The notes below the pieces were generated by a model that saw nothing but the letters and a program-made list of their open reading frames with translations, did no database searches and had not been told where the DNA came from. A DNA stretch of 64,000 nt from Vibrio sp. (GTDB taxonomy: Bacteria; Pseudomonadota; Gammaproteobacteria; Enterobacterales; Vibrionaceae), in contig NZ_JBLWZK010000008.1 in assembly GCF_048266485.1 (NCBI RefSeq), forward strand, positions 39,763 to 103,762, given 5' to 3'. This document shows, one piece after another, positions 17,680 to 47,618 of this stretch; position 1 is the stretch's first letter; the number at the start of each line of letters is the position of its first letter. Both the position numbers and the translations under genes were made by a program.

Positions 17680-17699
17680 ATTGTTTCCTTTTAATAACT

Positions 17700-26840: not shown

Positions 26841-27183
26841 ATCCATTCCTCTTTGATAAATGCAGCATCTAATTTGCAATTAAAAAAACCGCAATCCCAT
26901 CATTTAACATCAGAGATCGATTACATTAATACCAATCCAAATAAGTCGTTATTCGAAGCTTACATAGTGAGAGTTAAGCAACTATCGAGCCATTTTTGAA
27001 ACGGATATTAAAAGCGATTATTGATGGCTAATAGCTTAACTTTAGGTTTTGGAATTAAGCCTGATGACAACTTATTTCGATTGGCCTATCCCTGCCTGAT
27101 GCAAGTTAAAAAAGGTTGAATAATAAAACCGTCATAATTTCAGTATGGTTCAGAGAATGGGATTTGCCTAAAAAATGTATTTC

Positions 27184-27258: not shown

Positions 27259-29481
27259 TTAGTACTTAACCTGATAACTCAGCATATAAGTTCGGCCTTG
27301 ACCTTTGTAATCAAATACCGATGCTGGTGCCGAATTACCGTAATATATTTGAGCACGTTGTCCCCAAACCGTGGTGTAATCTTCATTGAGTAAGTTCTGA
27401 ATGCCAAACCCTAAGCTGCCTACTGGTAATTTAACCGACGTGGTTAAATCAACTGTCGTGTAACCATCCAGTTCATTATCAGAATCATCACTTAAATCAA
27501 ACATAGTGTTACTTTGTAAACGTAAAGCGTAAATATCATCATACCAACCGACCCAAGCTCCCATTTTTGATGCACTTGATGTCGTGACCGCAGATTTTAC
27601 CCAATCACCATTAGCATCTTTTTCTTCACTACGGACAACATGACCTAGACCACCTATTTGTAGATTAGAAGTTAACCAATAATTAAGCTCCGCTTCTAAG
27701 CCATATACACGTTTATCGAAATCAGAAACTAATACCGCAAGAGTACTTTTATCGTAAGAGGTCACTTTGTCTGATAATGATATATAAGCAGCGCTCTGAA
27801 TACTTAATTCACCCACTTGGTTTCGCATACCTACTTCGAAACTGTTGGTTTTCATTCCCTCTAACTTACTTTCAGACACATTAACACTATCGATTAGGTT
27901 CATGTGGCCATTTGCATCAGTTTGATAATTACCATTCCCGTAATATTTAGCAGGATCGGCTAAGTCAAAACCTTGCGAGAAGTTAGCCCATACTTGATTA
28001 CGGTTATTAATGTGGTAAAGAGTACCTAAATTAAATAATCCCACCGCGTAATCTGTGCTACCACCCTCAATAGTATCTGCAGAAATTGCACCACCTAAAG
28101 CAATCGTAGATTGAGCGTTGGCGCTAACAAAGTCATCAATTTTATTATTAATATATTGATAACGATAGCCGCCCTGCACTGTCCAATCATCGGTAATATT
28201 GTACTCGCCTTGTATAAAGCCTGCGACAGAGGCAACTTCAGTCCCTGGGTATCTGCCAATGGTGGCGTAGGTTTTATTAACTAAACCACCTGTTGCATAA
28301 CTTGTTGCTTGGTCAAACATATCTTGACTACTATCTAAAGTATCGATGTAGCCATCAAGGCCATAGGAAAGGTTAAAGCGACCAAAGTCTTTTAATAATG
28401 CCATACGCAGACTAACTACTTCTGTATCCTGCTCTGACGCAGCCATATATGTACCGTAAATAAAAGGAATAAATGACAAACTTTCTTTACGGTAGGAAGC
28501 TTGAATCATTAGTTGTTGGTTTAAAAAGTCTGAATTTAAGTAATTCACATTCACCATATAACGTTCTGTGCCACCTTGGCGATCCGATTCATAACCTTTA
28601 CTACGAACATTCAGTTGGCTTTCATCTCTTAAGCCAGCAAAGTATGTTCCAAAGTCGATACCATAAGGGCTATCTTGTTGACTATCATAATATTGTGCGA
28701 GAATAGATAAGCTTTGGCTATCAGTTAAATTCAATTCACCAGTTGCCATCAAATCTAAAACGGTATTGTATTGTAAAGAGCCTTGCGTAATATCTGGTAC
28801 AATGATGTTGCCATTGGCATCGTATTTAGCACCTGTTTCATGATAAACAGCAGAAAGTCGACCACGAACCTTCTCATTACCTCCACTGATCGATTGGGCA
28901 ATTTTTCCATCATAATCTTCACCGTTATTAAAACTGCTACCACCACCAACATAAGTTTCAGCGTGTAAGCCTTCATCGCGCGCTTTTTTAGTAACAATAT
29001 TAATTACGCCGCCAGTTGCCCCTGCACCATAAACAGAAGTTGCACCTGAAAGCACTTCAATTCGTTCAATATTAAATGGGTCGATAGAATCAAATTGGCG
29101 ACTAATCGAACGAGATGAATTTAGCGATACACCATCAATCATTACCAAGGCAGAGCGGCCACGTAAGTTTTGTGAAGTATTCGTTCTTCCTTGGCTACCA
29201 ATATCTAATGAGGGGATAGTTGCAGCTAAAATGTCCCCTAAACTTTTACCACTACGCGCTTCTTCCTCGATGCGCTCTTGATCTACATACCAAACCGTAC
29301 CTGGAATATCACTAATACTTTTAGGTGCAGTACTTGCCACCACTACTACGGTATCTAATGATGTACTTTTTTCTTCGGCCTGAACGGAAAAGCTTGAAAC
29401 ACCTGCAACCGCTAATGCCAAGCTAACTGGTGCTAATTTTTTTGGTGGCAAGTTGAGTCCTTTTAACATGTTGATTTCCAT
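27259..29481 (-). CDS. iutA: TonB-dependent ferric siderophore receptor, IutA-like
   Basis: Signal peptide, DTVVVVAS TonB box, and LNSSRSISRQFDSIDPFNIERIEVLSGATSVYGAGATGGVINIVTK plug motif like IutA. Confidence 0.85.
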   Translation of the reverse strand: MEINMLKGLNLPPKKLAPVSLALAVAGVSSFSVQAEEKSTSLDTVVVVASTAPKSISDIPGTVWYVDQERIEEEARSGKSLGDILAATIPSLDIGSQGRTNTSQNLRGRSALVMIDGVSLNSSRSISRQFDSIDPFNIERIEVLSGATSVYGAGATGGVINIVTKKARDEGLHAETYVGGGSSFNNGEDYDGKIAQSISGGNEKVRGRLSAVYHETGAKYDANGNIIVPDITQGSLQYNTVLDLMATGELNLTDSQSLSILAQYYDSQQDSPYGIDFGTYFAGLRDESQLNVRSKGYESDRQGGTERYMVNVNYLNSDFLNQQLMIQASYRKESLSFIPFIYGTYMAASEQDTEVVSLRMALLKDFGRFNLSYGLDGYIDTLDSSQDMFDQATSYATGGLVNKTYATIGRYPGTEVASVAGFIQGEYNITDDWTVQGGYRYQYINNKIDDFVSANAQSTIALGGAISADTIEGGSTDYAVGLFNLGTLYHINNRNQVWANFSQGFDLADPAKYYGNGNYQTDANGHMNLIDSVNVSESKLEGMKTNSFEVGMRNQVGELSIQSAAYISLSDKVTSYDKSTLAVLVSDFDKRVYGLEAELNYWLTSNLQIGGLGHVVRSEEKDANGDWVKSAVTTSSASKMGAWVGWYDDIYALRLQSNTMFDLSDDSDNELDGYTTVDLTTSVKLPVGSLGFGIQNLLNEDYTTVWGQRAQIYYGNSAPASVFDYKGQGRTYMLSYQVKY

Positions 29482-29747: not shown

Positions 29748-31763
29748 TTACTTTCTTAACAAATAGATAAAGTAGCCACCACCAATCAGTGATGCCAGCA
29801 GCCCTGCAGGTACTTGCCAAGGAAACCAAATATTGCGACCTAACCAGTCCGCTAATAACATGATGTTACTGCCTATCGCGCAGGACAAGAGCATTTGATG
29901 TCGTGCGCTATATTGTCCCATTGATTTAGCCATATGCGGTGCCAATAAACCGACAAAACTCAGGGGCCCCACCACAATCACAGCCAACGCAGTAAGCATC
30001 GATGCAAACAACATTAAACATTGTCGAACTCGATAGGTATTCAGCCCTAAAGCACTCGCGGTAATATTGCCTAGCGCCATCAAATCTAGCCAGCGGTGAC
30101 AAGTAAATAATCCAGCCGCTAACAATACCGTGCCAACGATCAAAAGTAAGGAATCTGACCACGCCACTAAATAAGTTGAACCGGATAACCAAGCTAATAA
30201 GGCTTTCACTTGCTCGTTACCAGAGGCTAATGAAATTCGAATCAATGAATCTAATAAGGCGCTTAATGCCACACCTGTCAATAACATTTTCACTGGCGAA
30301 AGTTGGCTCTTACGGCTAAACCACCACACCATAAACATGATGAATAAGGCTCCACCAGTGCCAAGCAGTAACTGCTCAAAACGCGTCACCGAACCAAACA
30401 ACAACACGCCCAGCACTAAAGCAAAAGCAGCACCAGAACTGATACCAATCACTTCCGGGCTCGACATTGGGTTGCCCGTAATTCGTTGAATAATGCTACC
30501 CGCTAATGCCAATGCAGAACCGGCAAAAATCGCCACCAGTACTCTTGGCATTCTTAAATCTAAAACGCTATGTGCAAAGCTCAGTTGCCAGCCGAATTGG
30601 CTTTGTCCTAAAAACAAAGACATCAAAGTAAACGCCACTAACACCAATACTGAAATCACAAATACTGGTAGGAAGGTTTGTTCAGAAAATTGTGGATCAG
30701 AGCCTGGCTGAAACTTTTGCGAACTCGACCAGGTTTGTTTATTCAATAGCCACAGTAAACACGGCGCGCCAATCAAAGCCGTGACTGAACCTGTTGGTAA
30801 TAACTCCCCTGCCACTCCCGCAAAAGGCATGACTAATAGATCAGTTAAAAGCAACAAAACCGCGCCCATTAACGTACTGAGCAATAATTGAGAAATCAGT
30901 CGTCTGGCCCCTAATAATTTGGCAAGACTTGGGGCAACCAAACCAATAAAACTGATAATACCCACTTCACTGACAATACTTGAGGTGACAAACACCGCAA
31001 TCACCAAAGCAGCGATCCGCAATAACCCCACTTTGACGCCAATCGATGAGGCAACATCTTCACCGAGCTGCAAAATAGACAATGGACGCTGAATCACTAG
31101 CAGGAGCAATAATGCAATCGCAATTTGTGGCAATAAATGCGCGACACCACTCCAATCATTTTGATCTAATGCTCCGGCTCCCCAAATAAACAAGCCAGTT
31201 AATTGCTGTTCATTAAATAGGATCAACACCATGTTGAGTGAGCCTAAGAATAATGTCACCACCATGCCTGCTAACACCATTTGTAGTGGTGCAAAGCCTT
31301 TGTGGGCGGTCAGTAAAAACACTAAACCTGTCGCTATTAATCCACCGATAAAAGCGAGCGTTTTCGGTGTCAGCCAAAACAAACCACTCAACTCGGAATG
31401 CCAAGCCGATAAAGGAAGTAATAATGCAATCGCAACCCCTAACTGAGCCCCCGAAGCCACACCTAGCGTGGTTGGTGAAGCCAATGGATTCCTTAATACG
31501 GTTTGCATTACGGAGCCAGCAAGCGCCAATCCTGCGCCACACAACAACGCCATCATCAAACGTGGAAAATAACTGTAATGCAAGATAACTTGCTGATAGC
31601 TTTCTTGATCAGGAGAGAATAAAGCTTGAACCAACTGATCAATAGGTAATGAATACGGCATACTAGCTTTAATCAATAGGTTTAATAACCCAATGATCAG
31701 CGCAACGAAGACACCATATTTCATCACACCAAATTTAAAAGGAGTCGGGAGCGCAGCGTCCAT
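29748..31763 (-). CDS. fhuB: FhuB hydroxamate ABC permease (duplicated FecCD domains)
   Basis: 671 aa with two FecCD halves (LRNPLASPTTLGV and ITGNPMSSPEVIG). Confidence 0.92.
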   Translation of the reverse strand: MDAALPTPFKFGVMKYGVFVALIIGLLNLLIKASMPYSLPIDQLVQALFSPDQESYQQVILHYSYFPRLMMALLCGAGLALAGSVMQTVLRNPLASPTTLGVASGAQLGVAIALLLPLSAWHSELSGLFWLTPKTLAFIGGLIATGLVFLLTAHKGFAPLQMVLAGMVVTLFLGSLNMVLILFNEQQLTGLFIWGAGALDQNDWSGVAHLLPQIAIALLLLLVIQRPLSILQLGEDVASSIGVKVGLLRIAALVIAVFVTSSIVSEVGIISFIGLVAPSLAKLLGARRLISQLLLSTLMGAVLLLLTDLLVMPFAGVAGELLPTGSVTALIGAPCLLWLLNKQTWSSSQKFQPGSDPQFSEQTFLPVFVISVLVLVAFTLMSLFLGQSQFGWQLSFAHSVLDLRMPRVLVAIFAGSALALAGSIIQRITGNPMSSPEVIGISSGAAFALVLGVLLFGSVTRFEQLLLGTGGALFIMFMVWWFSRKSQLSPVKMLLTGVALSALLDSLIRISLASGNEQVKALLAWLSGSTYLVAWSDSLLLIVGTVLLAAGLFTCHRWLDLMALGNITASALGLNTYRVRQCLMLFASMLTALAVIVVGPLSFVGLLAPHMAKSMGQYSARHQMLLSCAIGSNIMLLADWLGRNIWFPWQVPAGLLASLIGGGYFIYLLRK

Positions 31764-32702
31764 CTACTTTGCCTTAACCTGTGATTCTATAGTGTTGGTT
31801 TGCGTTAAGGCTCGAGTAACTTCATCACTGAACTTTTGCGCAGCTAACAGTCCGCCAAACGTCCATACCGGTGGTAACTCATGGGCACGCTGCTCACGTA
31901 CAAACTTCATGACTTTCCAAATAGGATTACTATTGAGCAGTTTTCTTTCATCACCGGTTAATGGTCCATAATAGAAAACTTCAGAGTCTTGAAATGGCGC
32001 TAATTGTTGAACGGTAGCTGAGCTAAACCCCCAGCTATTGCCTTGCTGTTGCCAAGCATTGGTTAATCCCATCAACTGAATCGTTTCTCCAGATAAAGAA
32101 GCATTACCATGGATGCGGATATGTTGCTCACCGATAAAACGGATCAATAACAAGGGAGAAATAGTTGTTTGAGAATCTTTTTCGAACTGTTCAATGCGCT
32201 GTTTGTTAGCTTGGATCTTTTCATCAAAATCAGCAATCACTTGCTCTGCTTGCTCACTACGATGTAACACTTTACCGAGATTACGAACTTGAGATTTGGC
32301 ATTTTCTATCGGTTGATGTGAATCAGTATAAATACTTAACACCATGGTTGGCGCAATGGCATTCAACTTTTGATAAGCTGGACTCATCGCATTACTCATC
32401 AAAATAAGATCTGGCTTCATTTGTGCGAGCAGCTCTAGGTTTGGCTCTCTTCTTGAACCAACACTGACAACACTTTCCGGTAATTGTGGTGAGACAACCC
32501 AAGCTTGGTAACCCTTAACATCCGCAATACCTACTGGAGTCACACCGAGCGCTAACAAATGTTCCGTCAACACCCAATCCAATGCCACAACTTTTTGTGG
32601 GATGGAATTAAATGTAACTACCCCCATCTCATGCTTAAAGCTTTCAGCGTGAGAACTAAACGATGCCCACAGCATTAAGAATGAGACTAACCAGCTTTTC
32701 AT
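31764..32702 (-). CDS. fhuD: FhuD periplasmic siderophore-binding protein
   Basis: VVALDW, VGSRREPNLELL and VWTFGG motifs. Confidence 0.9.
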   Translation of the reverse strand: MKSWLVSFLMLWASFSSHAESFKHEMGVVTFNSIPQKVVALDWVLTEHLLALGVTPVGIADVKGYQAWVVSPQLPESVVSVGSRREPNLELLAQMKPDLILMSNAMSPAYQKLNAIAPTMVLSIYTDSHQPIENAKSQVRNLGKVLHRSEQAEQVIADFDEKIQANKQRIEQFEKDSQTTISPLLLIRFIGEQHIRIHGNASLSGETIQLMGLTNAWQQQGNSWGFSSATVQQLAPFQDSEVFYYGPLTGDERKLLNSNPIWKVMKFVREQRAHELPPVWTFGGLLAAQKFSDEVTRALTQTNTIESQVKAK

Positions 32703-32744: not shown

Positions 32745-33512
32745 TTAACGGATATAGCTGATCGCATGACCAGATTCAGGATGAACAAATAAATCGAGTG
32801 GGATGCCGTAAATTTGATGCAGAACATCTTGCTGCATTAACTCATCAGGCGCGCCACTGGCTAACACTTTTCCTGAATGTAACGCCACCATATGATCACT
32901 GAATCTTGCCGCCATATTGATGTCATGCAGCACCATGATCACGGTTAACCCTAATTCCTGGTTTAACTCTCTCACCAAGGCTAATAATTCATATTGGTGA
33001 GCAACATCTAATGCCGAAGTAGGTTCATCTAATAAAATACATTCGCTTTTTTGTGCCAGTAACATCGCCATCCAAGCACGCTGTCTTTCGCCACCAGAAA
33101 GCGTCGCCACAAAACGATCTTGCATATGGGTGAGCTCCACTTGCTCAATGGCCTGATCGATATATTCTTCATCTTGGGAGGTGTAGCGGCCGAACAACCC
33201 TTTCCACGGATAACGACCAAAGCGTACTAACTCGCGAACTTTGACCCCATCAGTCAACGGGGGATGTTGCGGTAAATAAGCAACTTTAAGTGCAAATTCC
33301 TTGGCCGATAATTCAGATAATGGTTCTTCATCTAATAAAATACGGCCTTGGCTGGCTTGCTGTTGCCTTGCTAACATCTTAATCAACGTGGATTTCCCAC
33401 TACCATTATGACCAAGCAAACTGGTGATCTTGCCCTTTTCAAAGCTTAAAGACATCGGACTTAAAATGGTTTTATTTTGAGTCTCAAACGTAACATCCTG
33501 TAATCGAAACAT
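32745..33512 (-). CDS. fhuC: FhuC ABC ATPase
   Basis: GHNGSGKST, LSGGERQR, LLDEPT and VLHDIN motifs. Start at 33512 has RBS AAGGA. Confidence 0.93.
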   Translation of the reverse strand: MFRLQDVTFETQNKTILSPMSLSFEKGKITSLLGHNGSGKSTLIKMLARQQQASQGRILLDEEPLSELSAKEFALKVAYLPQHPPLTDGVKVRELVRFGRYPWKGLFGRYTSQDEEYIDQAIEQVELTHMQDRFVATLSGGERQRAWMAMLLAQKSECILLDEPTSALDVAHQYELLALVRELNQELGLTVIMVLHDINMAARFSDHMVALHSGKVLASGAPDELMQQDVLHQIYGIPLDLFVHPESGHAISYIR

Positions 33513-33549
33513 ATCCTTAAGCTCACTAAGCAAATCAAACTACACAAAT

Positions 33550-33568
33550 AGTAATGATTATCATAACC
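33550..33568. promoter_or_regulatory. Fur box upstream of fhuC
   Basis: Reverse complement GGTTATGATAATCATTACT is 15/19 to GATAATGATAATCATTATC. Confidence 0.8.
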
Positions 33569-33662
33569 AGTATCAATAACGTTTTAAATTTATATACAAT
33601 TCAATGGCACTTTTTTTGATATTTTCTGAATCAGAATTTATCCTTTTCTGTAGTCTAAATAG

Positions 33663-35411
33663 CTAGATAAGTAGCGGGTTGGCGATAGGATCGGCTAATT
33701 CTGGTAATGGCCTTTCACTGCTATCTCCTAATCCAATTTTAAAACGTACTTTATTAAGACAAATCTTATCTATATGGGTAGTCAATAGATCTAAAGCTTT
33801 AAAACGTTCGCTCAATTCCGGATGTTGAGCTTGGTAGTCCTGCAAAGTACTTTTTAGTAATCGGTAAAATTCCGGCTCACTCACTCCACCAGCTTCAAGC
33901 ATTGGAGAAACAAAACGCAGCACCGTCACAAAATGTCCAGTAAGTAAATCATGGATAAGATAATGAGCCGGCAAACGAACAAGGTTGGCTTGAATATCAT
34001 GATCAAGTGTTGAAAGCTCAGGATAATCTTGCTCGATTAATCGCAAGTCACCGTGAAAATCTTTAATCAAACAGCCAACTGGGAAGTGGTTTTGTAAAAT
34101 CAAAGTGACGTTTTGTCCATGCGCTACGATTCCCACACCATATTTAGCCATTAAATGATAAATAGGCACCACAACATGAGTAAACATCGCTTTCAACCAA
34201 TCTTGAGGAGTTCGATTTGATAAGTGAATTAACGCTTCAATGCACGGCTCACCACTTAAATCTTTTTGCATTAGGGTTGCCATTGAAAGAGGTCTTTGGT
34301 GTTCACTCAGTAAGCTTTCTGCACGTTCTCGCCAAATACAACCCAGCATTTCTTGATAACGATATGGCCCGTCGATTTTAGATTGATAAGGATGAGGGCA
34401 ATACACCCCACCAATTTCTTGTTGAACTCGCAGGCCAAGCTCATTTAAAACCACATCTTGTTTTGCAATATCCGCCAACCAAGTTGAGATACGTGCACCA
34501 TGCGCAATATATTTGCCAGGAATCCCTCGATAGCAAGAGGTATTTAAGATCGTTAATGCGGTTTTGATGTCTACATCCACACTCGGTATTTCTGCCGTTA
34601 ATGTTCTAATCGATTGCTGGGCCAACCACTTCACTGTCGTTGTACCGAGATCGATCAATTTATTTTCAACGAAATACTGTAAAAATTGGCTTTGAAGATA
34701 ACGCTGCAACTGCCATGGATGTACAAGAATAATATCAAACTGATCTAACCCATCTGACGGCAATTTATCGAGTAGCAAATGCCATTCTTGCTCGGTGACA
34801 AAAGAAGCAAATAAATCCTGAATATCTAAGCCAACTTTAAACCCAGACACAGAAATCGATTTATCCACCGCCAAGAAATGTAGTGCAAATGCTTGACCTG
34901 ATTCAGGAGAATAACGCTCAAGATCGTGCTCCCCCCACCCTAAACGGCCTTTATTGGCGATTAATTTAGGATGAGCATTTAAATATTTTTGTCTCGTGAT
35001 TTCATCACACTGGACAATATCAAAAGCGGTAAGCCCTTGTTGGACTTCCAAGCTACGCAACTCACTTCTTAGCGTCTGCTGAACCTCTTCAAAAAAGCCA
35101 GCTAAATTCATATCAGAAATATTGAGTACAGGTTGTAAATCGATCAATAAATCATTTAATAAAGGGACTTCACCATGACTCGATTGAATGGAAGCATTAT
35201 CAATGTTGAGCATGCCCCATACCGTTTCTTGTGCTTCAAATCTCCATTGATGATCCCCGAAATCGAGTACATAACTTTCCTTGCTCGATGTTTGAGTATT
35301 AGGTGCTTGAGCGCTCAATGGTGCACATTCAATTAACTGCTCAAAATGAATTTCACTTAATGTTTTACCAATCAAATTACGGTTTGCTTGTTCCCAAAAT
35401 TTATATGACAT
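33663..35411 (-). CDS. iucC: NIS synthetase type C, IucC-like
   Basis: AHPKLIANKGRLGW, VHPWQ, QQSIRTL, AHGQN, KDFHGD and RLPAHYLIHDLLTGHF motifs. Confidence 0.88.
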   Translation of the reverse strand: MSYKFWEQANRNLIGKTLSEIHFEQLIECAPLSAQAPNTQTSSKESYVLDFGDHQWRFEAQETVWGMLNIDNASIQSSHGEVPLLNDLLIDLQPVLNISDMNLAGFFEEVQQTLRSELRSLEVQQGLTAFDIVQCDEITRQKYLNAHPKLIANKGRLGWGEHDLERYSPESGQAFALHFLAVDKSISVSGFKVGLDIQDLFASFVTEQEWHLLLDKLPSDGLDQFDIILVHPWQLQRYLQSQFLQYFVENKLIDLGTTTVKWLAQQSIRTLTAEIPSVDVDIKTALTILNTSCYRGIPGKYIAHGARISTWLADIAKQDVVLNELGLRVQQEIGGVYCPHPYQSKIDGPYRYQEMLGCIWRERAESLLSEHQRPLSMATLMQKDLSGEPCIEALIHLSNRTPQDWLKAMFTHVVVPIYHLMAKYGVGIVAHGQNVTLILQNHFPVGCLIKDFHGDLRLIEQDYPELSTLDHDIQANLVRLPAHYLIHDLLTGHFVTVLRFVSPMLEAGGVSEPEFYRLLKSTLQDYQAQHPELSERFKALDLLTTHIDKICLNKVRFKIGLGDSSERPLPELADPIANPLLI

Positions 35412-35540
35412 GCAGCCTCCTACCCCCCAATAACCACAAATAAGTCATTGATATTTATTCGTATGACAAACTTATGTAGCACGAAATAATCACCAAAAAT
35501 CCCCCTTAATGTATTGACATCCACACCAAAGATCAACAAT

Positions 35541-35565
35541 CATAATGATAATTATTTGCATTATC
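35541..35565. promoter_or_regulatory. Overlapping Fur boxes in the divergent iucC / MFS promoter
   Basis: CATAATGATAATTATTTGC and GATAATTATTTGCATTATC, each 15/19 to consensus. Confidence 0.8.
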
Positions 35566-35582
35566 ATTTAGGTTTGTGTTTT

Positions 35583-36758
35583 ATGTGGTTATTTGGATCA
35601 CTATTTACTTTAGGAATTAATCAGACATTACTGATCGCACTCCTACCACAAATAGCCGTGCTTTTTAACGTCGATGCACAAAGCCATCAATTAGGACTGA
35701 TCGCAATAGCGATTAATGTCAATTTAATTAGTTATTGGGTGGGTTCAGGGATATGGGGAAAGTATCTTAATCGTATAAGTTTGACACAAGCCTATTGGAT
35801 CGCAGGGATTGGATATATAACATGTCATATTCTTTTCATTGCCGCCCTGTTTCACTTATCAAGTCCGCAACTTTGGTTAGCCGCATTAAGTCGATTTGGA
35901 CTTGGTTTATTCAGCAGTGCATTTATGCCAATAGGACAAACCTATCTCACTCACAAGCGACCTGCCGAATTAAATAACATATCAAAACTCAGTGGTATCG
36001 CCACGCTTGGTCGATTACTCGGCCCGACTTTGGTTTTTTTACCTTTAGGGTTATCCAATATTCTGTTACTCACACTACTCCCTATCGGCGTGAGTTTATT
36101 GTTCATAAAATGGTTAGCTAAAAACGATTTAAACCTGACTTTCATCCCCAATCATACCAAAGCGGTTTCTTCAATAAAGCTAGCTCAGGCATATAAATTG
36201 ACCTTTTTGACTGCATGTTTAACTACCATGCTGGTCGCTATATACCAATTAATGCTAGTGCCTTATTTAAGTAAGTTAGGATTAAACTCCCAGCAAATAT
36301 CCAACTACCTTGCGGGTATGATGTTGGCAATTAGCAGTTTAATGACCATCAATCAAATGTGGCTCACCCCTAAATTATTAGCTCGACCAACATTGATTTG
36401 GCACTTCATCAGTTGGCCTCTTGCTTTTTGTGGCTACATTCTCGCCACTTTTGAACATAGTTTGATAACGTTAATTATATTTAGCACAGCATTGACCATT
36501 GCGTTATCAAATCTACCAGCCTGGTATTCCAAGCAACTTTTATTTGTTAATCGAGACACTCCCCATACCAGTCAACTCAGCGGCCTCTTAGCGCAATCTC
36601 ATTCTAGCGGGCACCTGATTGGCACTGCATTGGCATCTTTAGCAGTCTACTTAAATATCAACGCTGAATATCTGCTGATCATGTTTATTTCAATATTAGT
36701 GCTTAGTGCGGTGTTGCTTAAACGTCAACACCTCACCCAAGCCTCAATCGTAAATTAA
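35583..36758 (+). CDS. MFS transporter, probable siderophore exporter (ShiF-like position)
   Basis: About 12 hydrophobic segments, SRFGLGLF and GRLLGP motifs. Start moved from the TTG at 35514 to the ATG at 35583 because the upstream part is occupied by Fur boxes. Confidence 0.75.
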   Translation: MWLFGSLFTLGINQTLLIALLPQIAVLFNVDAQSHQLGLIAIAINVNLISYWVGSGIWGKYLNRISLTQAYWIAGIGYITCHILFIAALFHLSSPQLWLAALSRFGLGLFSSAFMPIGQTYLTHKRPAELNNISKLSGIATLGRLLGPTLVFLPLGLSNILLLTLLPIGVSLLFIKWLAKNDLNLTFIPNHTKAVSSIKLAQAYKLTFLTACLTTMLVAIYQLMLVPYLSKLGLNSQQISNYLAGMMLAISSLMTINQMWLTPKLLARPTLIWHFISWPLAFCGYILATFEHSLITLIIFSTALTIALSNLPAWYSKQLLFVNRDTPHTSQLSGLLAQSHSSGHLIGTALASLAVYLNINAEYLLIMFISILVLSAVLLKRQHLTQASIVN

Positions 36759-36804: not shown

Positions 36805-39594
36805 ATGTCTATCTACCCATTAGCTATTCCAGATAGCACAGTACAACACACCTCAAGTTTAGGATTACAAAGCTTTTTCAATAGTTTTTTGATGGAAACA
36901 AAAGGTTGTCGAGTCGTTCAGCAACACCTTTATATTTCACTTGGTGAACAACAATTAGCCTTACCATTAAGCTATGTATCGGCACTAGGGCGTCATCGTT
37001 ATCAAGGCGATATCTACTTAATTAACCATGCAGAAACTCACGACGATCACCAAGTAGATTCGAGTATAAATAATGCGAATAAAATCAATTTTTCACGTGC
37101 CGTATCGTTATTAGTCTCTTACTACTACCCTCATATAGATTCTAAAACGCATGATCGTTTCTTTAACCGAGTCGGAGAGTCAACACGCTATATTAATCGT
37201 GCAATGTTAGCACTAGAGCAACGCTCTCAGCTCGATCTTTCGGCAGATTGTTTCATTCAATCAGAACAATCTTTAGTTGGTGGACATAGCATGCACCCAG
37301 CACCGAAAAGCAGCGAACCTTTAACGGAAGAACAGCAATATGCGTACCTTCCGGAATACGCTCAAAGTTTTGCCATTGAATGGTTCGCCATCCACCCTAA
37401 TTACATCGCCTCACAAACAGAAGCATCGCAGCTTCTCCATACCTTTAAAGCGCTATTACAAAGCAATTTATCTTTAGATGGAAAAACAACCCATCATATA
37501 CCATCGCTAATTCAACAAGGTTGGCTTGCACTACCTATGCATCCATTACAAGCCAAAGAGTGGCGAGAAAACATTAAAAAGTACGACCTATCTGAATATG
37601 TTGTTGATTGTCAACTCTGCACGCATGGCTGGACTGCTACTTCATCCACTAGAGCGATTTATCACCCTCAATTGGCTTGGATGCTCAAAGTCTCTCTGCC
37701 GGTTAAGTTAACCAATTCTTTACGCCTACTTAGTGAAAAAGAAGCCAAACGAGGTGTTCAGTTTAGTCAGATATTACAGACTGCTGTGGGTCAAGAGATG
37801 CAACAAAGAATGCCTAACACTGAATTTATCCAAGAGCCAATTTGGGCTTCAGTAAAAGACTCAAATGGTCAGTGTCTAGACTTACCTTTAGTTTGCTTAA
37901 GAGAAAACGTCTTTTACCACTTTCAAGATTCCCTCACCACTCAACCCAATACTCATCTTCTTGCCACTGCGAATCAAAATATCAATGGTGAAAGTCAAAT
38001 AGGACAATGGGTCAAAAGCTACGCACAAGAAAATCAACTGCCATTATCGGTAGCAGCGCGTCAATGGCTAAATCAATTTATGAACAACGTTATTCACCCA
38101 CTATGTATTGCTCGTAGTGATTACGGCATCATTTTTTTAGCACACCAACAAAACATCCTGTTAGATATTGATAATAACCTACCAATCGGTATGAAATATC
38201 GAGACTGCCAAGGGATTGGATTAACGGATGTTGCCCTTCAAAAATTTTCCGAGCTTTTCGATAACCAAGAGCCCGAATATTTTGTGTCACAAGATAAAGT
38301 TGATCCCTACCTTTCTTATTATTTGGTTGGCAATACATTACTCAATACCATTGCAACCATCTGTGCAGATACGCAAATAAAGGAGCATGAACTATGGTCT
38401 AGTTGCCAACACACATTTTCTCAATGGCGTCAAGCTCGACCGATAGACTCCGGTTTCTATGATTACTTACTCAAATCACCAACACTAAGATGGAAGCGTA
38501 ATTTTTTCTGTTTCTTATCTAACTTTAACGAATCAACTTTACTGGACCCTAGTCAGATTTATTGCGAAATTGAAAATCCATTTTATGACGCTCAACCAAA
38601 AGAGAGACTATATAAACCTTTACCTTCCAATTCCCATCAACCACGTAGTATTTGTATTGAGTCATTACAAACTCTGACTGAACAAGATCATTCACATCAA
38701 CGGTTCGCAATATATGAGTTGGGAGTATTACAAGGCGAATTCGATTTAATCTTGTCTCAAGGTGAGATCTATATCGATACCAAATTAACCGAGCCGATGT
38801 TGTGGTGGAGCGCAACAGAGCACGCGTTTTATACGAGTCATAAAGCCGAGCTACATTGTGGACATTGGCCTGACTTTGTTCTCCCTCACCTAACAGATGA
38901 AAAGCTATTACATAAAACCTTTCTACAAGTAGCTCCAATATGGCACCAACCAGCACAAATCACAGAGTCAAAACAAAGACAAACCGCGCCCAACGGCATT
39001 TCACATCCTATCCGTCCGCCTAAACCCGTGGGTACTGTCTATCAACGCTATTGTTACCACCTAAAGCGTACAGTGTCGTTTCGAATGATCGAAATTCACC
39101 GCGATTTAGACATTTTCCACCGTTGGCATAATCACCCATTAACGTCGCCAATTTGGGAACTAGAAGGTAGCTTAGGGATGCATTCACAATACTTGCAAAA
39201 ATTAGAACAAGACCCACATCAATTTGCCGTTATTGGAGAATTCGATGGGGTCGCTTTTGGATATTTTGAAGTGTACTGGGCAGCCGAAGATCGTCTAGGG
39301 CCTTATTACGAATTTCAAGACTATGACCGAGGTGTACACATCTTAGTTGGTAATTTTGACTACCGAGGGGGCACCTACTTTGATGCGTGGGGCAAGTCGA
39401 TTCTACATTATTGCTTCTTAGTTGAACCGCAAACCATGAGCACAGTAGGTGAGCCAAACGCGAAAAACTATCGAGTCGTCAAAATCACGGAACGAATTGG
39501 CATGAAAAAACAGTTCGAATTTGATTTTCCACATAAGCGTGCTGCATTGCTGCAATGTCAACGTCAAGATTTTTTTGAAAACGTCATTTTTTAA
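36805..39594 (+). CDS. Fused NIS synthetase type A (IucA-like) and hydroxylysine acyltransferase (IucB-like)
   Basis: N-terminal about 590 aa: GGHSMHPAPKS, PMHPLQ, TSSTRA, VKLTNSLRLL, AHQQN, RDCQG, ending IYCEIENPF. C-terminal part: PIRPPKP...FEVYWAAEDRLG...DRGVHILVG...EPN...EFDFPHKRA. One open frame of 929 aa. Confidence 0.9.
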   Translation: MSIYPLAIPDSTVQHTSSLGLQSFFNSFLMETKGCRVVQQHLYISLGEQQLALPLSYVSALGRHRYQGDIYLINHAETHDDHQVDSSINNANKINFSRAVSLLVSYYYPHIDSKTHDRFFNRVGESTRYINRAMLALEQRSQLDLSADCFIQSEQSLVGGHSMHPAPKSSEPLTEEQQYAYLPEYAQSFAIEWFAIHPNYIASQTEASQLLHTFKALLQSNLSLDGKTTHHIPSLIQQGWLALPMHPLQAKEWRENIKKYDLSEYVVDCQLCTHGWTATSSTRAIYHPQLAWMLKVSLPVKLTNSLRLLSEKEAKRGVQFSQILQTAVGQEMQQRMPNTEFIQEPIWASVKDSNGQCLDLPLVCLRENVFYHFQDSLTTQPNTHLLATANQNINGESQIGQWVKSYAQENQLPLSVAARQWLNQFMNNVIHPLCIARSDYGIIFLAHQQNILLDIDNNLPIGMKYRDCQGIGLTDVALQKFSELFDNQEPEYFVSQDKVDPYLSYYLVGNTLLNTIATICADTQIKEHELWSSCQHTFSQWRQARPIDSGFYDYLLKSPTLRWKRNFFCFLSNFNESTLLDPSQIYCEIENPFYDAQPKERLYKPLPSNSHQPRSICIESLQTLTEQDHSHQRFAIYELGVLQGEFDLILSQGEIYIDTKLTEPMLWWSATEHAFYTSHKAELHCGHWPDFVLPHLTDEKLLHKTFLQVAPIWHQPAQITESKQRQTAPNGISHPIRPPKPVGTVYQRYCYHLKRTVSFRMIEIHRDLDIFHRWHNHPLTSPIWELEGSLGMHSQYLQKLEQDPHQFAVIGEFDGVAFGYFEVYWAAEDRLGPYYEFQDYDRGVHILVGNFDYRGGTYFDAWGKSILHYCFLVEPQTMSTVGEPNAKNYRVVKITERIGMKKQFEFDFPHKRAALLQCQRQDFFENVIF

Positions 39595-39825
39595 TTTCGC
39601 CACTGTCAGTGATGCTAAACACATCATCACTGACATTGCTTATACCAATCAAATTAATTAGATGATCAGAGATTACGTAGGAAAAAGCCTTGAGAACAAG
39701 GCATAAATTTTCGATAAGTAGTTACTCTACAATCAAAATTTATAACGCAGTTATCGATGCTTTTCACAAGTAAGAATGATTAGATGATTAATGAGATTGG
39801 TATTAATACCTGTAGGGAACACATC

Positions 39826-41145
39826 ATGAATAATCCACAAGATTTTGATTGCCTTGGAATTGGACTTGGCCCATTTAATTTAAGCATTGCAGCATTAATT
39901 GAAGAGTCAAAAACACAACTGCAAACGCGATTCTTAGAAAGAAAGCCTTTATTCAGTTGGCACCCAGGCTTATTACTCAGCGATGCAAAAATGCAGACTT
40001 CGTTTTTAAAAGACCTAGTCAGTGCCGTCGACCCCACAAGCCCATACAGCTTTTTAAATTACTTGGTAAAACAGCATAAATTCTATCCATTTTGTGCCTC
40101 TGGTCAGTCAGTCATTTCACGATTAGAGTTCTCGGACTACCTTGCTTGGACTGCCCATCAATTACCCAACACCCAGTTTGACTGTAACATTCAACACGTC
40201 GATTACGTCGACAATCAGTTTATTGTTCATTCAGAAACAGAGCGTTACACCAGCAAAGATTTAATCATAGGAACCGGCATGCAACCGCATATACCTGAAT
40301 GTATCCGTGAGTTGGTATCCGATCACTGTTTTCATGCAAGTGAATTGGCTTTACGCGCGCCGGACTTAACAGGAAAACGAGTTGCAATCATAGGAGGAGG
40401 ACAAACTGGCGCAGATATATTTCAGCACACCTTTGATCAACAATTCGGTAGACCTGAGAATATTGATTGGATTTCTCGACGCCCGAATATCGAACAATTA
40501 GACGAAGGTTGCTTTACTGATCAATATTTCATGCCCGATTACGTCAATCAGTTTTACCACCTAGACCAAAAGAATAAACATCGTGAAGTTTCCCACCAGA
40601 AACTAGCAAGTGACGGTGTCACGTCAAGTTGTTTAAATGGATTATATCAACGTCTCTATCACGACAAATATGTATTACGAAACCCTAAATGGTGGTCAAT
40701 CAAACCTCATCAGAGCTTAATATCAGGTCAATATAGAAATGGAGAATATCAATTAGACATTCAGCATGGTCTGACCCAGAAAATCCAAACGGTAAAAGCA
40801 GATATTGTCATTCTCTGTACTGGTTTTACCCATGACCTCCCGGCATGTTTAGATCATTTAAAACCACTGATGATCACCGACCCACGCAACCGACTCATAC
40901 TCAGTAGCGACTACTGTTTGCAATGGAAAGGAATGCAGAACAATCGTATTTACATTGTAAATTCTGGTACCGATAACCACGGCATTGCCGAGCCTCAACT
41001 TAGCTTAGCTGCATGGCGAGCTGCTAAAATCGTCAATAGCCTATGCCAAAATAACATTTATGAACTTGATGAAGAGCAAAATATTCTCGATTGGGGTTTG
41101 GATATTGAACCACAGCATAACTTTGCCAATGTAATCTCTATGTAA
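39826..41145 (+). CDS. iucD: Lysine N6-hydroxylase, IucD-like
   Basis: GIGLGPFNLSIAAL, FSWHPG, MQTSFLKDLV and IGGGQTGADIF motifs. Start at 39826 has RBS AGGGA. Confidence 0.88.
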   Translation: MNNPQDFDCLGIGLGPFNLSIAALIEESKTQLQTRFLERKPLFSWHPGLLLSDAKMQTSFLKDLVSAVDPTSPYSFLNYLVKQHKFYPFCASGQSVISRLEFSDYLAWTAHQLPNTQFDCNIQHVDYVDNQFIVHSETERYTSKDLIIGTGMQPHIPECIRELVSDHCFHASELALRAPDLTGKRVAIIGGGQTGADIFQHTFDQQFGRPENIDWISRRPNIEQLDEGCFTDQYFMPDYVNQFYHLDQKNKHREVSHQKLASDGVTSSCLNGLYQRLYHDKYVLRNPKWWSIKPHQSLISGQYRNGEYQLDIQHGLTQKIQTVKADIVILCTGFTHDLPACLDHLKPLMITDPRNRLILSSDYCLQWKGMQNNRIYIVNSGTDNHGIAEPQLSLAAWRAAKIVNSLCQNNIYELDEEQNILDWGLDIEPQHNFANVISM

Positions 41146-41186: not shown

Positions 41187-41446
41187 TTGAATCATTAGTT
41201 TAATCAAAACCATTAACTTCCCCCCTTCATTTAGCTGAATTAAATCTTGCTAATACTCAAGTCACTTCAAGATGGAGTTTCAGCAATAATATAATGTTCA
41301 TAAATCAACCTATTTCAGAGGCTTTTTATGATTACCGCCACACTTTATAGATCCAGAATGTGACGGTGCTAGCAACTCCTCTCCACAATAAAAAACCACC
41401 ATTTGTCTTACAATATACTAAAAATGGTGAATCAAGGAGAGAGTCT

Positions 41447-41917
41447 ATGTTAAATGCAGAATCTATTGTTAAAGATGCAATAGACGTCGTAACCCCATCT
41501 ATTGAAAAGCTTTTTGAAAGAACAAATCGAAAAGAGCTTCATATCGTAGTAATGAATCCTGAGTTAAAGCCTTGGGAAAGTTCATTTGAAAATGCCATTT
41601 TGTATGAGAAATCATTAGGCAAACCAGAAACTTGGACGATTCCTTTTGAGCAACTTGCTCGCCAAAAAGCCAAACAAGCATGGCGAAACTCTGTGGCAAA
41701 TATTAATGCTCAAACTCAACACCCCGCTTCAATTAGAGAAGGCGACATTTTGTTCTATGGCTCATTTGTTTACGGCAATATTGTTGTGGCATGTAGTGGC
41801 GTAGAGCAATGGTATGACATGCTAATTAGTGGTTGGATTGCGGTGGCAATTGAACAGATCACTATGAGTGAATATCAGAACAATAAAATTTCTAACCCTA
41901 CACAACCTGTAAGATAA
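41447..41917 (+). CDS. Uncharacterised 156-aa protein with GlcG/HbpS-like motif order
   Basis: RBS AAGGAG before the ATG at 41447. HIVVMN...ARQKAKQAW...GSFVYGNIVVACSG...DMLIS parallels the GlcG/DUF336 pattern (by eye only). Confidence 0.55.
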   Translation: MLNAESIVKDAIDVVTPSIEKLFERTNRKELHIVVMNPELKPWESSFENAILYEKSLGKPETWTIPFEQLARQKAKQAWRNSVANINAQTQHPASIREGDILFYGSFVYGNIVVACSGVEQWYDMLISGWIAVAIEQITMSEYQNNKISNPTQPVR

Positions 41918-41930
41918 GGAAAAGACTGCC

Positions 41931-42863
41931 ATGAATAATTTATTAAAAAAATTGCTTGTTACAGCTGGAATTCTTTTGTCAACCACCGCGGTTGCCGCAG
42001 ACTATCCAACCAAAAACATTCGCCTTATTGTTCCATTTGGTGCCGGTGGTGGCACGGATGCAGTTGGTCGAACACTGGCTAACTCTGCGAAAGATGTTTT
42101 AGGGCAAAACATTACTGTAATGAATCGTACTGGTGGTGCGGGTGCAGTTGGTATGAGTTTTGGTGCACAACAACGCCCAGACGGCTATACCCTAACCGTA
42201 GTCACTCGTGAAATTTCCTCTTTACCTCAAATGGGGTTGATGCAACACGATGCGAGTGATTTTAAATTAATCCGTATGGTAAACCTTGATCCTGCAGTCG
42301 TGCTTGTGTCAAAAGATAGCCCATACAACACCATTAATGACCTTATTGCAGAAGCAAAGAAAGAACCAGGTTCACTAAAATTTGCATCAACAGCAGCTCC
42401 CAACTTTTACTTAATGGCGCTTGAGAAAAAAGAAGGCATCAAACTGAATGCGATTCCATACAACGGTGCTTCAGAAGCGATTCCTGCGGTACTAGGTAAG
42501 CACACTGATGTGACTATGGTAACGCCAGGAGAAGCGATTGCTCAATTGCGTTCAGGCCAACTAAAAGCATTGGGCGTAATGTCTGCAGAGCGCATTGATT
42601 ACCTTCCTGAAGTACCTACTTTAAAAGAGCAAGGTGTCGATGTAGTAACAGGTACATGGCGTGGTATTGGTGCACCGAAAGGTACACCTGATGAAGTAAT
42701 TGAAACTCTAGGTAAAGCGTTTGACCAAGCAATGGCGAGCGATGAGTTCAAAGGATTCATGACAAAAGGGGCGATGACTATTCATAACCTCAATGCTGAA
42801 GAGTTCACTCAGTTTGTTGCTGAAGATACTAAAGCATTAGGCGCACTCATTAACGACAAATAG
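41931..42863 (+). CDS. tctC: Tripartite tricarboxylate transporter substrate-binding protein
   Basis: YPTKNIRLIVPFGAGGGTD, GGAGAVG...DGYTL, PYNGASEA and WRGIGAPKGTP motifs. Confidence 0.9.
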   Translation: MNNLLKKLLVTAGILLSTTAVAADYPTKNIRLIVPFGAGGGTDAVGRTLANSAKDVLGQNITVMNRTGGAGAVGMSFGAQQRPDGYTLTVVTREISSLPQMGLMQHDASDFKLIRMVNLDPAVVLVSKDSPYNTINDLIAEAKKEPGSLKFASTAAPNFYLMALEKKEGIKLNAIPYNGASEAIPAVLGKHTDVTMVTPGEAIAQLRSGQLKALGVMSAERIDYLPEVPTLKEQGVDVVTGTWRGIGAPKGTPDEVIETLGKAFDQAMASDEFKGFMTKGAMTIHNLNAEEFTQFVAEDTKALGALINDK

Positions 42864-42871
42864 TAACAACA

Positions 42872-42899
42872 AAAAATGGGGCCTACAGGCTCCATTTTT
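42872..42899. terminator. Intercistronic hairpin between tctC and tctB
   Basis: AAAAATGGGGCC-TACA-GGCTCCATTTTT. Confidence 0.6.
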
Positions 42900-42932
42900 G
42901 CTCAATTAACTAATTAAGTTGTAGAGTTTATT

Positions 42933-43376
42933 ATGAAAGATCGAAACCTTACCTTCCCCTTTTTAATGATCTTGATGAGTATTGGCGCATTAATTGTGAT
43001 CAGCCAATTTGATAAGCCCATGTTCCAGGATGCTAGCGTTGACGCAAAATTCTTTCCTCGAGTGATTGCGTTCGGCATTATTATTCTATCTTGTGTATTG
43101 ATGCTTCAAAGTATTATACAAAGAACAAAACAGACACTACCTCCAATTTTCTCCAAACTGTCTTTATTTGGAGTTGGATTTCTCATTCTGTATGCCTCAT
43201 TAATTTATTTCATTGGCTATTTAGCCGCTTCACTTATTGCCTTTACTAGTTATTTAATCTTCCTAAAAATCAAAAAACCTATGTATTACGTTTTTTCGAC
43301 GATTTTTGTCTTCTTTGTTTATTACTTATTCAGCGAAGTCTTTTTTATTTCTTTGCCACAAGGCGTATTTTTCTAA
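42933..43376 (+). CDS. tctB: TctB small membrane subunit
   Basis: Four TM segments, FFPR motif, C-terminal LPQG. Confidence 0.85.
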   Translation: MKDRNLTFPFLMILMSIGALIVISQFDKPMFQDASVDAKFFPRVIAFGIIILSCVLMLQSIIQRTKQTLPPIFSKLSLFGVGFLILYASLIYFIGYLAASLIAFTSYLIFLKIKKPMYYVFSTIFVFFVYYLFSEVFFISLPQGVFF

Positions 43377-43385
43377 GAGGCGGTT

Positions 43386-44870
43386 ATGTTAGAGCATTTA
43401 TTGAACGGCTTAGCTGTCACATTCAGTTTTGAAGTTCTGCCTGTCCTGATTTTTGGAGTATTGGGCGGCATTATCTTAGGTGCACTACCCGGCTTAACCG
43501 CCACTATGGGGGTTGCAATTCTTTTACCTTTTACTTTTGGTATGGAGCCTACCGCCGCGTTAGTGATGCTCATTGGTGTCTATATCGGTGGCATTTATGG
43601 CGGTTCCATTGCGGCTATTTTGCTTAAAACACCTGGCACTCCCGCATCTGCTGCCAGTGTACTGGATGGATATACCATGTCTTCCAATGGACAAGCCGCA
43701 CGTGCATTAAGTATTTCTGCCATTGCTTCTTTTGTTGGTGGATTGATCAGTACCATAGTGCTGATTGCCATCTCCCCTCTTTTGGCGAAGTTTGCTTTAA
43801 AATTTAACGCTCCTGAGTATTTTGCTTTGGCGTTATTTGGTTTAACGATTATTGCCAGTGTGTCTTCACAAAACATTCTCAAAGGCTTATTAGCAGGCGG
43901 AATTGGCTTATTGATTTCCACTGTCGGTTTAGATCCAATCAGTAGTGTTCCACGATTTACCTTTGGCGTGATGGATTTATACAGCGGTGTGAATGTAATT
44001 CCAGTGCTAATTGGTTTATTTGCTCTATCTGAAGCGCTAAATCAAATCGAAAAAATCTTGTCTGAAAAACAAATCAAACCACCTAAGTTTGATCGTAAAT
44101 TACTCAGTCAGAAAGATTTAAAAGAAATGATGCCGACGGCAGTGAAAAGCGGATTAATGGGAACAACCATAGGTTCAGTACCAGGTGCCGGTGCTGATAT
44201 TTCTGCCTTTGTTTGTTACAACGAAGCAAAACGATCTTCAAAGAATCCTGATGAGTTTGGTAAAGGATCGGTGAAAGGCTTAGCGGCGGCTGAAGCCGGT
44301 AACAATGGTGTAACTGGCGGTTCATTAGTGCCACTGCTTACTTTAGGTGTTCCTGGCGATGCGGTAGCGGCAGTACTTCTTGGTGCATTAATCATTCAAG
44401 GTTTAACCCCTGGTCCATTACTATTTGCTCAAAGCCCGGAAGTGGTTTACGGCGTGTTCAGTTCAATGCTGGTGGCTAACATAGTGATGTTGATTGTCGG
44501 CCTACTTGGCATTCGCTTTTTCTGTCGCATTATTGAAGTACCTAAGATTTTAATGATCCCGATTATTATCTTCTTATCAATTGTCGGCGCGTATGCCATC
44601 AACAACTCAATGTTTGATATTGGTATCGCAATTGGCTTCGGTGCTTTAGGCTTTATTCTCGGTAAATTAGATATTCCATCTTCACCGATTTTACTGGCTA
44701 TCATCTTGGGACCAATGGCGGAAACCAACTTGCGCAAGTCATTGTTAATGTATGATAACTCTTGGTCTTTCCTATACGATAGACCGATTGCCTTAGCCTT
44801 TATTGTATTGGCTGTTTTATCGGTTTACTCTACAATGAAAATGAAAAAGCGCGCGAATAAAGACGCTTAA
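43386..44870 (+). CDS. tctA: TctA large membrane subunit
   Basis: GALPGLTATMG, YGGSIAAILLKTPGTP, AAEAGNNG and LTLGVPG motifs. Confidence 0.93.
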   Translation: MLEHLLNGLAVTFSFEVLPVLIFGVLGGIILGALPGLTATMGVAILLPFTFGMEPTAALVMLIGVYIGGIYGGSIAAILLKTPGTPASAASVLDGYTMSSNGQAARALSISAIASFVGGLISTIVLIAISPLLAKFALKFNAPEYFALALFGLTIIASVSSQNILKGLLAGGIGLLISTVGLDPISSVPRFTFGVMDLYSGVNVIPVLIGLFALSEALNQIEKILSEKQIKPPKFDRKLLSQKDLKEMMPTAVKSGLMGTTIGSVPGAGADISAFVCYNEAKRSSKNPDEFGKGSVKGLAAAEAGNNGVTGGSLVPLLTLGVPGDAVAAVLLGALIIQGLTPGPLLFAQSPEVVYGVFSSMLVANIVMLIVGLLGIRFFCRIIEVPKILMIPIIIFLSIVGAYAINNSMFDIGIAIGFGALGFILGKLDIPSSPILLAIILGPMAETNLRKSLLMYDNSWSFLYDRPIALAFIVLAVLSVYSTMKMKKRANKDA

Positions 44871-45607: not shown

Positions 45608-45620
45608 AGCAATACCTTTT

Positions 45621-47450: not shown

Positions 47451-47618
47451 AACAGTCATTTTGAAAAGAATGAGTCGATATTTTATGCTTTTCCCCATAG
47501 AACCATATAACCATTTGTGGGTATCACTTAATATCCACGTATCAATATTATCGATGACACAATCAAGAGAAAAATCATAAGCAATTAATATTAAGACAAA
47601 TAAAAGTAAATCGATAAC

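Follow-up and report, generated by a model that had tools for sequence, protein, structure and literature searches.

Siderophore enzymes in which an acyltransferase and a synthetase of the nonribosomal peptide synthetase (NRPS)-independent siderophore (NIS) type share one chain include DfoC, BibC and PubC of the desferrioxamine, bisucaberin and putrebactin pathways; the substrates of this type of enzyme are diamines. In DfoC (PDB 5o7o) a short GNAT domain of the Acetyltransf_8 family (residues 26-185) precedes a type-C synthetase (residues 210-757). Fusions of IucA-type synthetases have also been described: PMC10700112, citing Carmichael et al. 2019 (Carmichael, Zhou & Butler), gives the IucA and IucB homologues of the woodybactin cluster of Shewanella woodyi MS32 as fused; this cluster is entry BGC0002469 of MIBiG (PMC13607003), and a Francisella fusion of an IucA homologue with an acetyltransferase has been used as a Rosetta-stone argument (PMC7407949). 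The subject here is a fused iucA-iucB gene in a 64,000-nt stretch of a Vibrio sp. genome (GCF_048266485.1, contig NZ_JBLWZK010000008.1, positions 39,763 to 103,762; hereafter the window), in which a type-A synthetase stands first and the acyltransferase second. An initial annotation, made from the letters of the window alone, correctly recognized that this order is opposite to that of DfoC and that the synthetase is of type A rather than C, but its implication that a type-A-first fusion is novel fails against the woodybactin and Francisella examples and against the many such fusions in the databases.

Taken as a whole, the open reading frame (ORF) is best explained as a genuine bifunctional enzyme of an aerobactin-type NIS pathway, an explanation considered likely. 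It is a single ORF of 929 aa that begins with ATG, with the Shine-Dalgarno (SD) motif AAGGA 7 nt upstream, and neither the ORF listing nor the translation shows an internal stop. Pfam identifies IucA_IucC (PF04183; aa 150-374, E 4e-42) and a FhuF-like domain (PF06276; aa 420-576, E 2e-21), both far above the gathering score, followed by Acetyltransf_8 (PF13523; aa 764-908, E 2.5e-47), which is matched over its full profile and far above the gathering cut-off. The initial annotation had described one IucA-IucB polypeptide without a stop, a type-A domain ending at the motif IYCEIENPF near 38590, and no evident internal ribosome-binding site, and all of this stands: the motif occupies nt 38557-38583 (aa 585-593), and the seven in-frame ATG, GTG or TTG codons from aa 560 to 780 all lack a preceding SD-like motif. 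The protein is 99% identical to one from Vibrio sp. E150_018 that is annotated 'GNAT family N-acetyltransferase', 86% identical to a V. algivorus protein and 81% to a V. rumoiensis protein.

Sequence and model comparisons identify the N-terminal half as a type-A (IucA-like) NIS synthetase, nearer to IucA than to the type-C enzymes IucC and DesD or to other NIS enzymes. The best solved relative of this half is IucA (5jm7), with an E value of 3e-74 over aa 15-594 against chain residues 10-572, versus 3e-11 for IucC and 7e-9 for AcsD in the same search; the AlphaFold model superposes on IucA with a TM score of 0.90 (target-normalised), and on both IucC and DesD with about 0.7 (Foldseek). IucA of Enterobacter mori (580 aa) aligns through its residues 10-576 with aa 17-594 of the fusion at 34% identity. 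Across an alignment of 63 fusions the N-terminal domain of this half has a mean identity of 31% to the window protein; residues H161, H164, S281, R283, K295, T303, N304, R307, H447, Q449, N450 and D467 are invariant and align with the GHxxHP, TxSxR, K, TNxxR, HxQN and RD motifs of AcsD and IucA; in AcsD the corresponding residues are ligands of ATP, Mg2+ and citrate. The GNAT half carries its own set of invariant residues in the same 63 fusions, and by these residues both halves look catalytically competent.

The region between the two halves had been described as a divergent linker of about 130 aa; it turns out to consist mostly of a folded subdomain, and the true connector is short (about 16-37 residues) and variable. 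E. mori IucA ends four residues past the aligned NPFY, the first strand of the acyltransferase half starts at aa 601-606 in the model, and the distance from the invariant N591 to the equivalent of aa 614 is 16-37 residues across the 63 fusions. E. mori IucB (316 aa) aligns through its residues 84-314 with aa 697-927 of the fusion at 39% identity; since the alignment starts at IucB residue 84, the first ~83 residues of IucB correspond to aa ~614-696 of the fusion, and the supposed linker is colinear with stand-alone IucB. The full-length AlphaFold2 model, built on the 63-sequence alignment, has a mean predicted local distance difference test (pLDDT) score of 91 and a predicted TM score (pTM) of 0.92, with disorder in residues 1-13 only; residues 601-735 are modeled as strands and helices (pLDDT ~87-95), with no disordered linker. 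A separate model of aa 591-929 (339 aa, pLDDT 94.6) superposes on both domains of SidF (7qf6), the N5-hydroxyornithine transacylase of Aspergillus fumigatus, with a TM score of 0.77 (query-normalised) over 420 columns, whereas single-domain GNATs cover just its last ~175-205 residues. SidF has the same two subdomains as the C-terminus of the window protein at 24% identity, although this eukaryotic enzyme stands alone, unfused to a synthetase, and uses anhydromevalonyl-CoA; it is joined among the PDB relatives of the GNAT domain by BH2621, the DfoC GNAT, Rv1347c and NcdE. The GNAT of DfoC-type enzymes, in contrast, is without the N-terminal subdomain of IucB and SidF. Judged from sequence and model, the C-terminal half is a complete IucB-type acyltransferase, with an N-terminal subdomain and a catalytic GNAT domain. 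The poor conservation that had been remarked on in the N-terminal part of the IucB half is real: the subdomain has a mean identity of 25% to the window protein, versus 57% for the GNAT domain, the best-conserved part of the 63 fusions.

The fusion is widely distributed. A search against 5.8 billion proteins, with clusters at 90% identity, returned 62 clusters that contain all three Pfam domains at about 98% query coverage, down to 27% identity, from Vibrio, Agarivorans, Alteromonas, Paraneptunicella, Salinivibrio, Ferrimonas, Flocculibacter, Moritella, Psychromonas, Shewanella and the myxobacterium Paraliomyxa. In an exhaustive HMMER scan of 1.84 billion representatives, with clusters at 50% identity, about 45-50 of the best 150 clusters are 710-1004 aa long and match both halves; the order IucA_IucC-FhuF-Acetyltransf_8 is confirmed in eight of ten representatives scanned among these 150. 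In the GTDB set (one genome per species) fused and split genes were distinguished by walking the open frame, as tblastn alignments are unfit for counting fusions because tblastn reads through a lone in-frame stop; the fused ORF is uninterrupted in 19 species loci (L001-L016, L019, L041, L043), and the genes are split in Pantoea, Cedecea, Enterobacter sp., Buttiauxella, Kushneria and others. Independent sequencing data agree with the assembly at the junction, as contigs of four public runs cover 38300-39200 with substitutions only, without indel; the one substitution checked by hand, C>T at 38672 in an independent contig, changes Thr to Ile. The ratio dN/dS against V. algivorus is 0.12 for the junction segment (aa 595-735) and 0.12-0.14 across the junction and IucA parts, which by this codon comparison places the junction under purifying selection.

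These results bear directly on whether a sequencing or assembly error could have erased a stop or frameshift between separate iucA and iucB genes. Such an error might be argued from two V. maritimus loci (L017, L018) that shift frame near aa 689 of the query, and from the single in-frame stop found between iucA and iucB in many Enterobacterales; however, with an uninterrupted ORF in 19 species-level genomes, more than 60 protein clusters reaching down to 27% identity, junction contigs free of indels in four independent runs and purifying selection on the junction codons, the chance of an artefact is negligible. Because of this evidence the natural fusion is regarded as genuine and not an assembly error. 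Other V. maritimus proteins (P0022, P0025) are intact, and the frame change in L017 and L018 is either pseudogenisation or sequencing error.

A continuous ORF could nonetheless yield two chains in the cell, through internal initiation or through proteolysis at the connector. The variable connector has a high content of Pro, Ser and Gln, as might suit cleavage, and split relatives couple the translation of iucB to that of iucA by an SD motif inside the last iucA codons; in the fused gene, however, no in-frame start between aa 560 and 780 has such a motif, no Met that could serve as a second start is conserved at the junction in alignments of 25 or 63 fusions, and both halves are packed together in the model (pTM 0.92), which makes synthesis as two chains very improbable and favors the single bifunctional polypeptide.

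Among described fusions the S. woodyi protein provides the closest comparison. Swoo_0585 (WP_012323229.1, 925 aa, S. woodyi MS32), found by exact-sequence look-up, is most likely the fused IucA/IucB homologue of the woodybactin cluster, the match of this locus tag to the cluster being made here. It aligns with the window protein over aa 19-928 (98% of the length) in one colinear alignment at 35% identity and shares its domain order and length; the S. nanhaiensis protein (L041) belongs to the same 90% cluster as Swoo_0585. The Shewanella fused proteins fall with the window protein in the same main fused clade of a neighbor-joining (NJ) tree, and both the Shewanella and the window fused genes are directly followed by an IucD-like gene. 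The loci differ in that S. hanedai (L019) and S. nanhaiensis (L041) are without an IucC-like gene, which the window has, and in gene order and transporters. The absence of IucC from the Shewanella loci fits one-armed 'asymmetric' citrate siderophores, and from the presence of IucC in the window and most fused loci a two-armed product would be expected; among the 18 other fused loci, 15 have an IucC-like gene near the fusion, with L009, L019/L041 and L043 as the exceptions. A layout with iucC divergent and iucD next after the fusion is shared by most of the fused loci of Vibrio, Agarivorans, Salinivibrio, Alteromonas, Moritella and Psychromonas. A search beside the fused genes of the Psychromonas, Agarivorans and Shewanella loci for further tailoring genes (acyl-CoA ligase, decarboxylase) turned up none, the neighbors being unrelated. 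One contig of Alteromonas sp. a30 carries two paralogous copies of the fused gene, separated by about 90 kb; IucC-like and ABC genes lie near one (L010), and there is no IucC within 10 kb of the other (L009).

Shorter fusions of about 710-830 aa, the Francisella example included, likewise have IucA_IucC and FhuF at the N-terminus and Acetyltransf_8 at the C-terminus; in these the GNAT domain lies ~40-70 residues past the synthetase, the IucB N-terminal subdomain is largely absent and identity to the window protein is 25-35%. The separate IucA and IucB of aerobactin biosynthesis (E. coli, Klebsiella, Enterobacter) perform the same two functions in the same DNA order, with 34% identity for IucA and 39% for IucB, and the window contains homologues of IucA, IucB, IucC and IucD as well as a TonB-dependent receptor. 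The canonical iucABCD-iutA single operon is not matched, however: iucA and iucB encode one polypeptide rather than two, iucC is divergent on the opposite strand, genes for MFS and ABC transporters are interspersed, and the receptor is encoded 6 kb off on the other strand. At identities of ~32-43% to the aerobactin enzymes, substrate and acyl specificity may differ.

In the proposed pathway the IucD-like hydroxylase would make an N-hydroxy amine, most likely N6-hydroxylysine; the C-terminal half of the fusion (aa ~600-929) would move an acyl group from acyl-CoA onto this amine, and the N-terminal half would adenylate citrate at a prochiral carboxyl and link it to the acylated product. The separate IucC-like enzyme would then add a second arm to give a citrate dihydroxamate, either aerobactin or an analogue that differs in its acyl groups. 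The product would leave the cell by way of the MFS protein and be taken up again by the RhtA/IutA-like receptor and the ABC system, with the whole pathway under putative Fur control. Fusion would guarantee a 1:1 stoichiometry and proximity for the two consecutive steps, and the channelling of acylated hydroxylysine and an altered acyl-chain preference, both raised in the initial annotation, are plausible; a fatty-acyl shift is plausible because the products of the Shewanella relative, the woodybactins, are reportedly fatty-acyl compounds.

The fusion most likely dates from an ancestor in which iucA lost its stop codon, the iucB ATG having followed this stop directly and in frame. That stop-ATG arrangement persists in Pantoea, Cedecea, Buttiauxella, Dryocola, Enterobacter sp. 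and Citrobacter sp., at least 14 species loci in all, in which the sequence runs ...CAGGAGGGC TGA ATG... and the SD motif lies within the last iucA codons; judged from these sequences, such genes would need one point mutation or one readthrough event to become a nearly linkerless fusion. An NJ tree of the synthetase domains, which carries no bootstrap or other support values, groups 59 fused proteins (those of the window, Shewanella, Moritella and Psychromonas among them) in one clade and places eight other fusions at scattered positions among split genes, a pattern suggesting that the fusion arose more than once. The same observations leave considerable room, a little short of an even chance, for a fusion with no kinetic role and no channelling, in which a near-neutral stop loss between coupled genes was kept as harmless and for its fixed stoichiometry: one point mutation suffices where TGA and ATG abut, outside the main clade fused forms are intermixed with split ones as if the fusion had been gained or lost repeatedly, and a split system such as that of E. 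coli aerobactin functions well. Against near-neutrality, the 59-member clade extends across several families of marine Gammaproteobacteria, the connector stays short, and the confident, fixed arrangement of the domains in the model (pTM 0.92) hints at a functional interface.

The genes around the fusion make up the remainder of the putative siderophore locus, and the coordinates of these and of the reference loci are collected in the table below. The MFS gene probably starts at the in-frame ATG 35583 rather than at TTG 35514, because the sequence TTGACA at 35514-35519 resembles a -35 hexamer and is followed by the Fur-box-like sites. This gene ends 47 nt upstream of the synthetase gene; for comparison, protein P0203 (972 aa) is another natural fusion, of an N-terminal MFS with an IucA-type synthetase (MFS_1, IucA_IucC and FhuF). 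Between the fused gene and iucD lies an unusually long spacer of 190 nt (39595-39784). Directly 3' of the fused-gene stop this spacer contains a hairpin (39604..39636, + strand; dG -16.3 kcal/mol, z -4.8) without a U-run, which is kept in V. algivorus (L001 12797-12835) with one compensatory pair change, and a second short GC hairpin follows at 39687-39702; these may form an mRNA-stability or attenuation element inside the operon.

Table. Coordinates of the fused gene, its parts and its neighbors in the window, with the reference loci from other genomes in the last two lines.
Feature	Position (nt)	Strand	Evidence or remark
Fused iucA-iucB gene	36805..39594	+	929 aa, stop codon included in coordinates; ATG start; one ORF
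IucA-like type-A NIS synthetase half	36805..38586	+	aa 1-594
Short variable connector	38587..38643	+	aa ~595-613
N-terminal subdomain of IucB-type acyltransferase	38644..39009	+	aa ~614-735; pLDDT ~87-95; five beta-strands and helices
Catalytic GNAT (Acetyltransf_8), IucB type	39010..39591	+	aa 736-929; Pfam E 2.5e-47
TonB-dependent siderophore receptor, RhtA/IutA type	27259..29481	-	Pfam Plug and TonB_dep_Rec
Fused double FecCD permease of ABC importer	29748-31763	-	Pfam FecCD, two stretches
Periplasmic binding protein of ABC importer	31764-32702	-	Pfam Peripla_BP_2
ATPase of ABC importer	32745-33533	-	Pfam ABC_tran
Fur-box-like sites	33550..33574	.	Upstream of ABC importer genes; two overlapping 19-mers, 4 mismatches each
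IucC-like type-C NIS synthetase, divergent	33663..35411	-	Pfam IucA_IucC and FhuF; IucC 6cn7, E 7e-134, full length
MFS transporter, probable siderophore exporter	35514..36758	+	Pfam MFS_1
Two overlapping Fur-box-like sites	35541..35565	.	Promoter region of divergent iucC and MFS-iucAB
IucD-like flavin N-hydroxylase	39784..41145	+	Pfam Lys_Orn_oxgnase, E 8e-102
Canonical aerobactin operon of E. mori (L056), five genes	9974-11716, 11713-12663, 12660-14402, 14399-15724, 15751-17940		Reference for IucA/IucB colinearity
Abutting stop-ATG loci (L022-L030, L032, L036, L040, L079)	e.g. L024 11690-11695		In frame; Enterobacterales

Iron regulation of the locus appears possible from matches to the Fur-box consensus. 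The whole 64-kb window was scanned for mismatches of 19-mers to GATAATGATAATCATTATC; the best match in the window, with three mismatches, is at 35547-35565 in the divergent promoter region, and it is overlapped by a second with four mismatches at 35541-35559. These two sites overlap promoter-like hexamers on both strands. In addition to the sites that precede the ABC importer genes, weaker Fur-box-like matches occur upstream of the receptor gene.

Lysine is the best guess for the substrate of the hydroxylase, because this enzyme is nearer to IucD (43% identity and 375 bits to that of E. mori, 41-42% to annotated IucD of E. coli and Klebsiella plasmids) than to the Sinorhizobium meliloti plasmid homologue (30%), because Pfam and NCBIfam scans revealed no decarboxylase among the 13 ORFs in 21817-44870 that are 120 aa or longer, and because the sole class-III aminotransferase there (21817-23262) is distant, ~4 kb beyond the receptor and beside an aldehyde dehydrogenase and a peptidase. 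The amine could instead be a diamine (1,3-diaminopropane, putrescine or cadaverine) drawn from primary metabolism, which would lead to a siderophore of the schizokinen, rhizobactin or arthrobactin type. Vibrios do make 1,3-diaminopropane, for norspermidine; the best NCBIfam model for the receptor is RhtA, the rhizobactin 1021 receptor; the best solved relatives of the hydroxylase are the diamine hydroxylases DesB, FbsI and DfoA; and schizokinen has been predicted for a homologous archaeal cluster (PMC7407949). The RhtA score (818 bits), however, lies under the model cut-off of 1100, and together with the identities to authentic IucD, the decarboxylase-free scan and the remote aminotransferase this renders a diamine rather unlikely. 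The ranking of solved relatives was tried as a guide to the hydroxylase substrate and rejected, as authentic IucD gives essentially the same ranking.

For the acyl donor, we know of no validated sequence code for acyl-CoA specificity. One tentative proposal, held with little confidence, is that the IucC-containing fused subclade (the Vibrio algivorus/rumoiensis group, Agarivorans, Alteromonas, Salinivibrio, Moritella and Psychromonas) makes undescribed two-armed, fatty-acylated aerobactin analogues similar to the ochrobactins, and that a fixed IucB-IucA interface hands the hydrophobic acyl-hydroxylysine straight to the synthetase. Amphiphilic citrate siderophores are reported from marine Vibrio isolates, and according to PMC5812596 they have yet to be linked to a biosynthetic cluster in Vibrionaceae.

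Several points weigh against the interpretation of the ORF as a bifunctional enzyme of an aerobactin-type pathway. Its basis is sequence and predicted models, and a search of RNA runs gave no clear transcriptome for the strain; neither the acyl donor nor the substrate of the hydroxylase can be deduced from sequence, and the ranking of solved hydroxylases is uninformative for the latter, since true IucD ranks alike. The Fur sites are consensus matches and nothing further, and the single main fused clade comes from an unbootstrapped NJ tree.

Directly downstream of iucD, within 41360-44870, a TctCBA tripartite tricarboxylate transporter is encoded, together with a 185-aa ORF (41360-41917) that has no Pfam or NCBIfam match; a LuxR-type response regulator and a histidine kinase follow on the other strand (44957-47498). 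Since this arrangement of TctCBA and regulators is shared with V. algivorus only, a link between the transporter and a citrate-based siderophore may be coincidental. On the other side of the locus, 21817-26879 encodes the class-III aminotransferase, a succinate-semialdehyde-type aldehyde dehydrogenase, an AsnC/Lrp regulator and an M24 peptidase; these look like an amine or GABA-type catabolic unit, and no evidence was found in this region to tie them to the siderophore pathway. Unrelated to the fusion are the genes for an APH-family phosphotransferase at 50472-51404 and, at 51899-55675, for the alpha subunit of a NarG-like respiratory nitrate reductase.

The architecture of the window protein is already known and widespread in marine bacteria, and is not a new kind of enzyme; the practical value of the finding is modest and current understanding is not overturned. 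Fusions of ~900 aa are, however, annotated merely as 'GNAT family N-acetyltransferase', which hides a full NIS synthetase, so that in genome mining the cluster can be overlooked or wrongly scored. A coherent set of marine siderophore clusters is marked by the fused clade, and of their products only the Shewanella woodybactins are chemically characterised. If the fatty-acylated reading is true, the IucC-containing fused loci would supply the missing genetics for the amphiphilic citrate siderophores of marine Vibrio isolates; and the fused, split and one-stop-away forms constitute a natural system for testing channelling in fused consecutive NIS enzymes.

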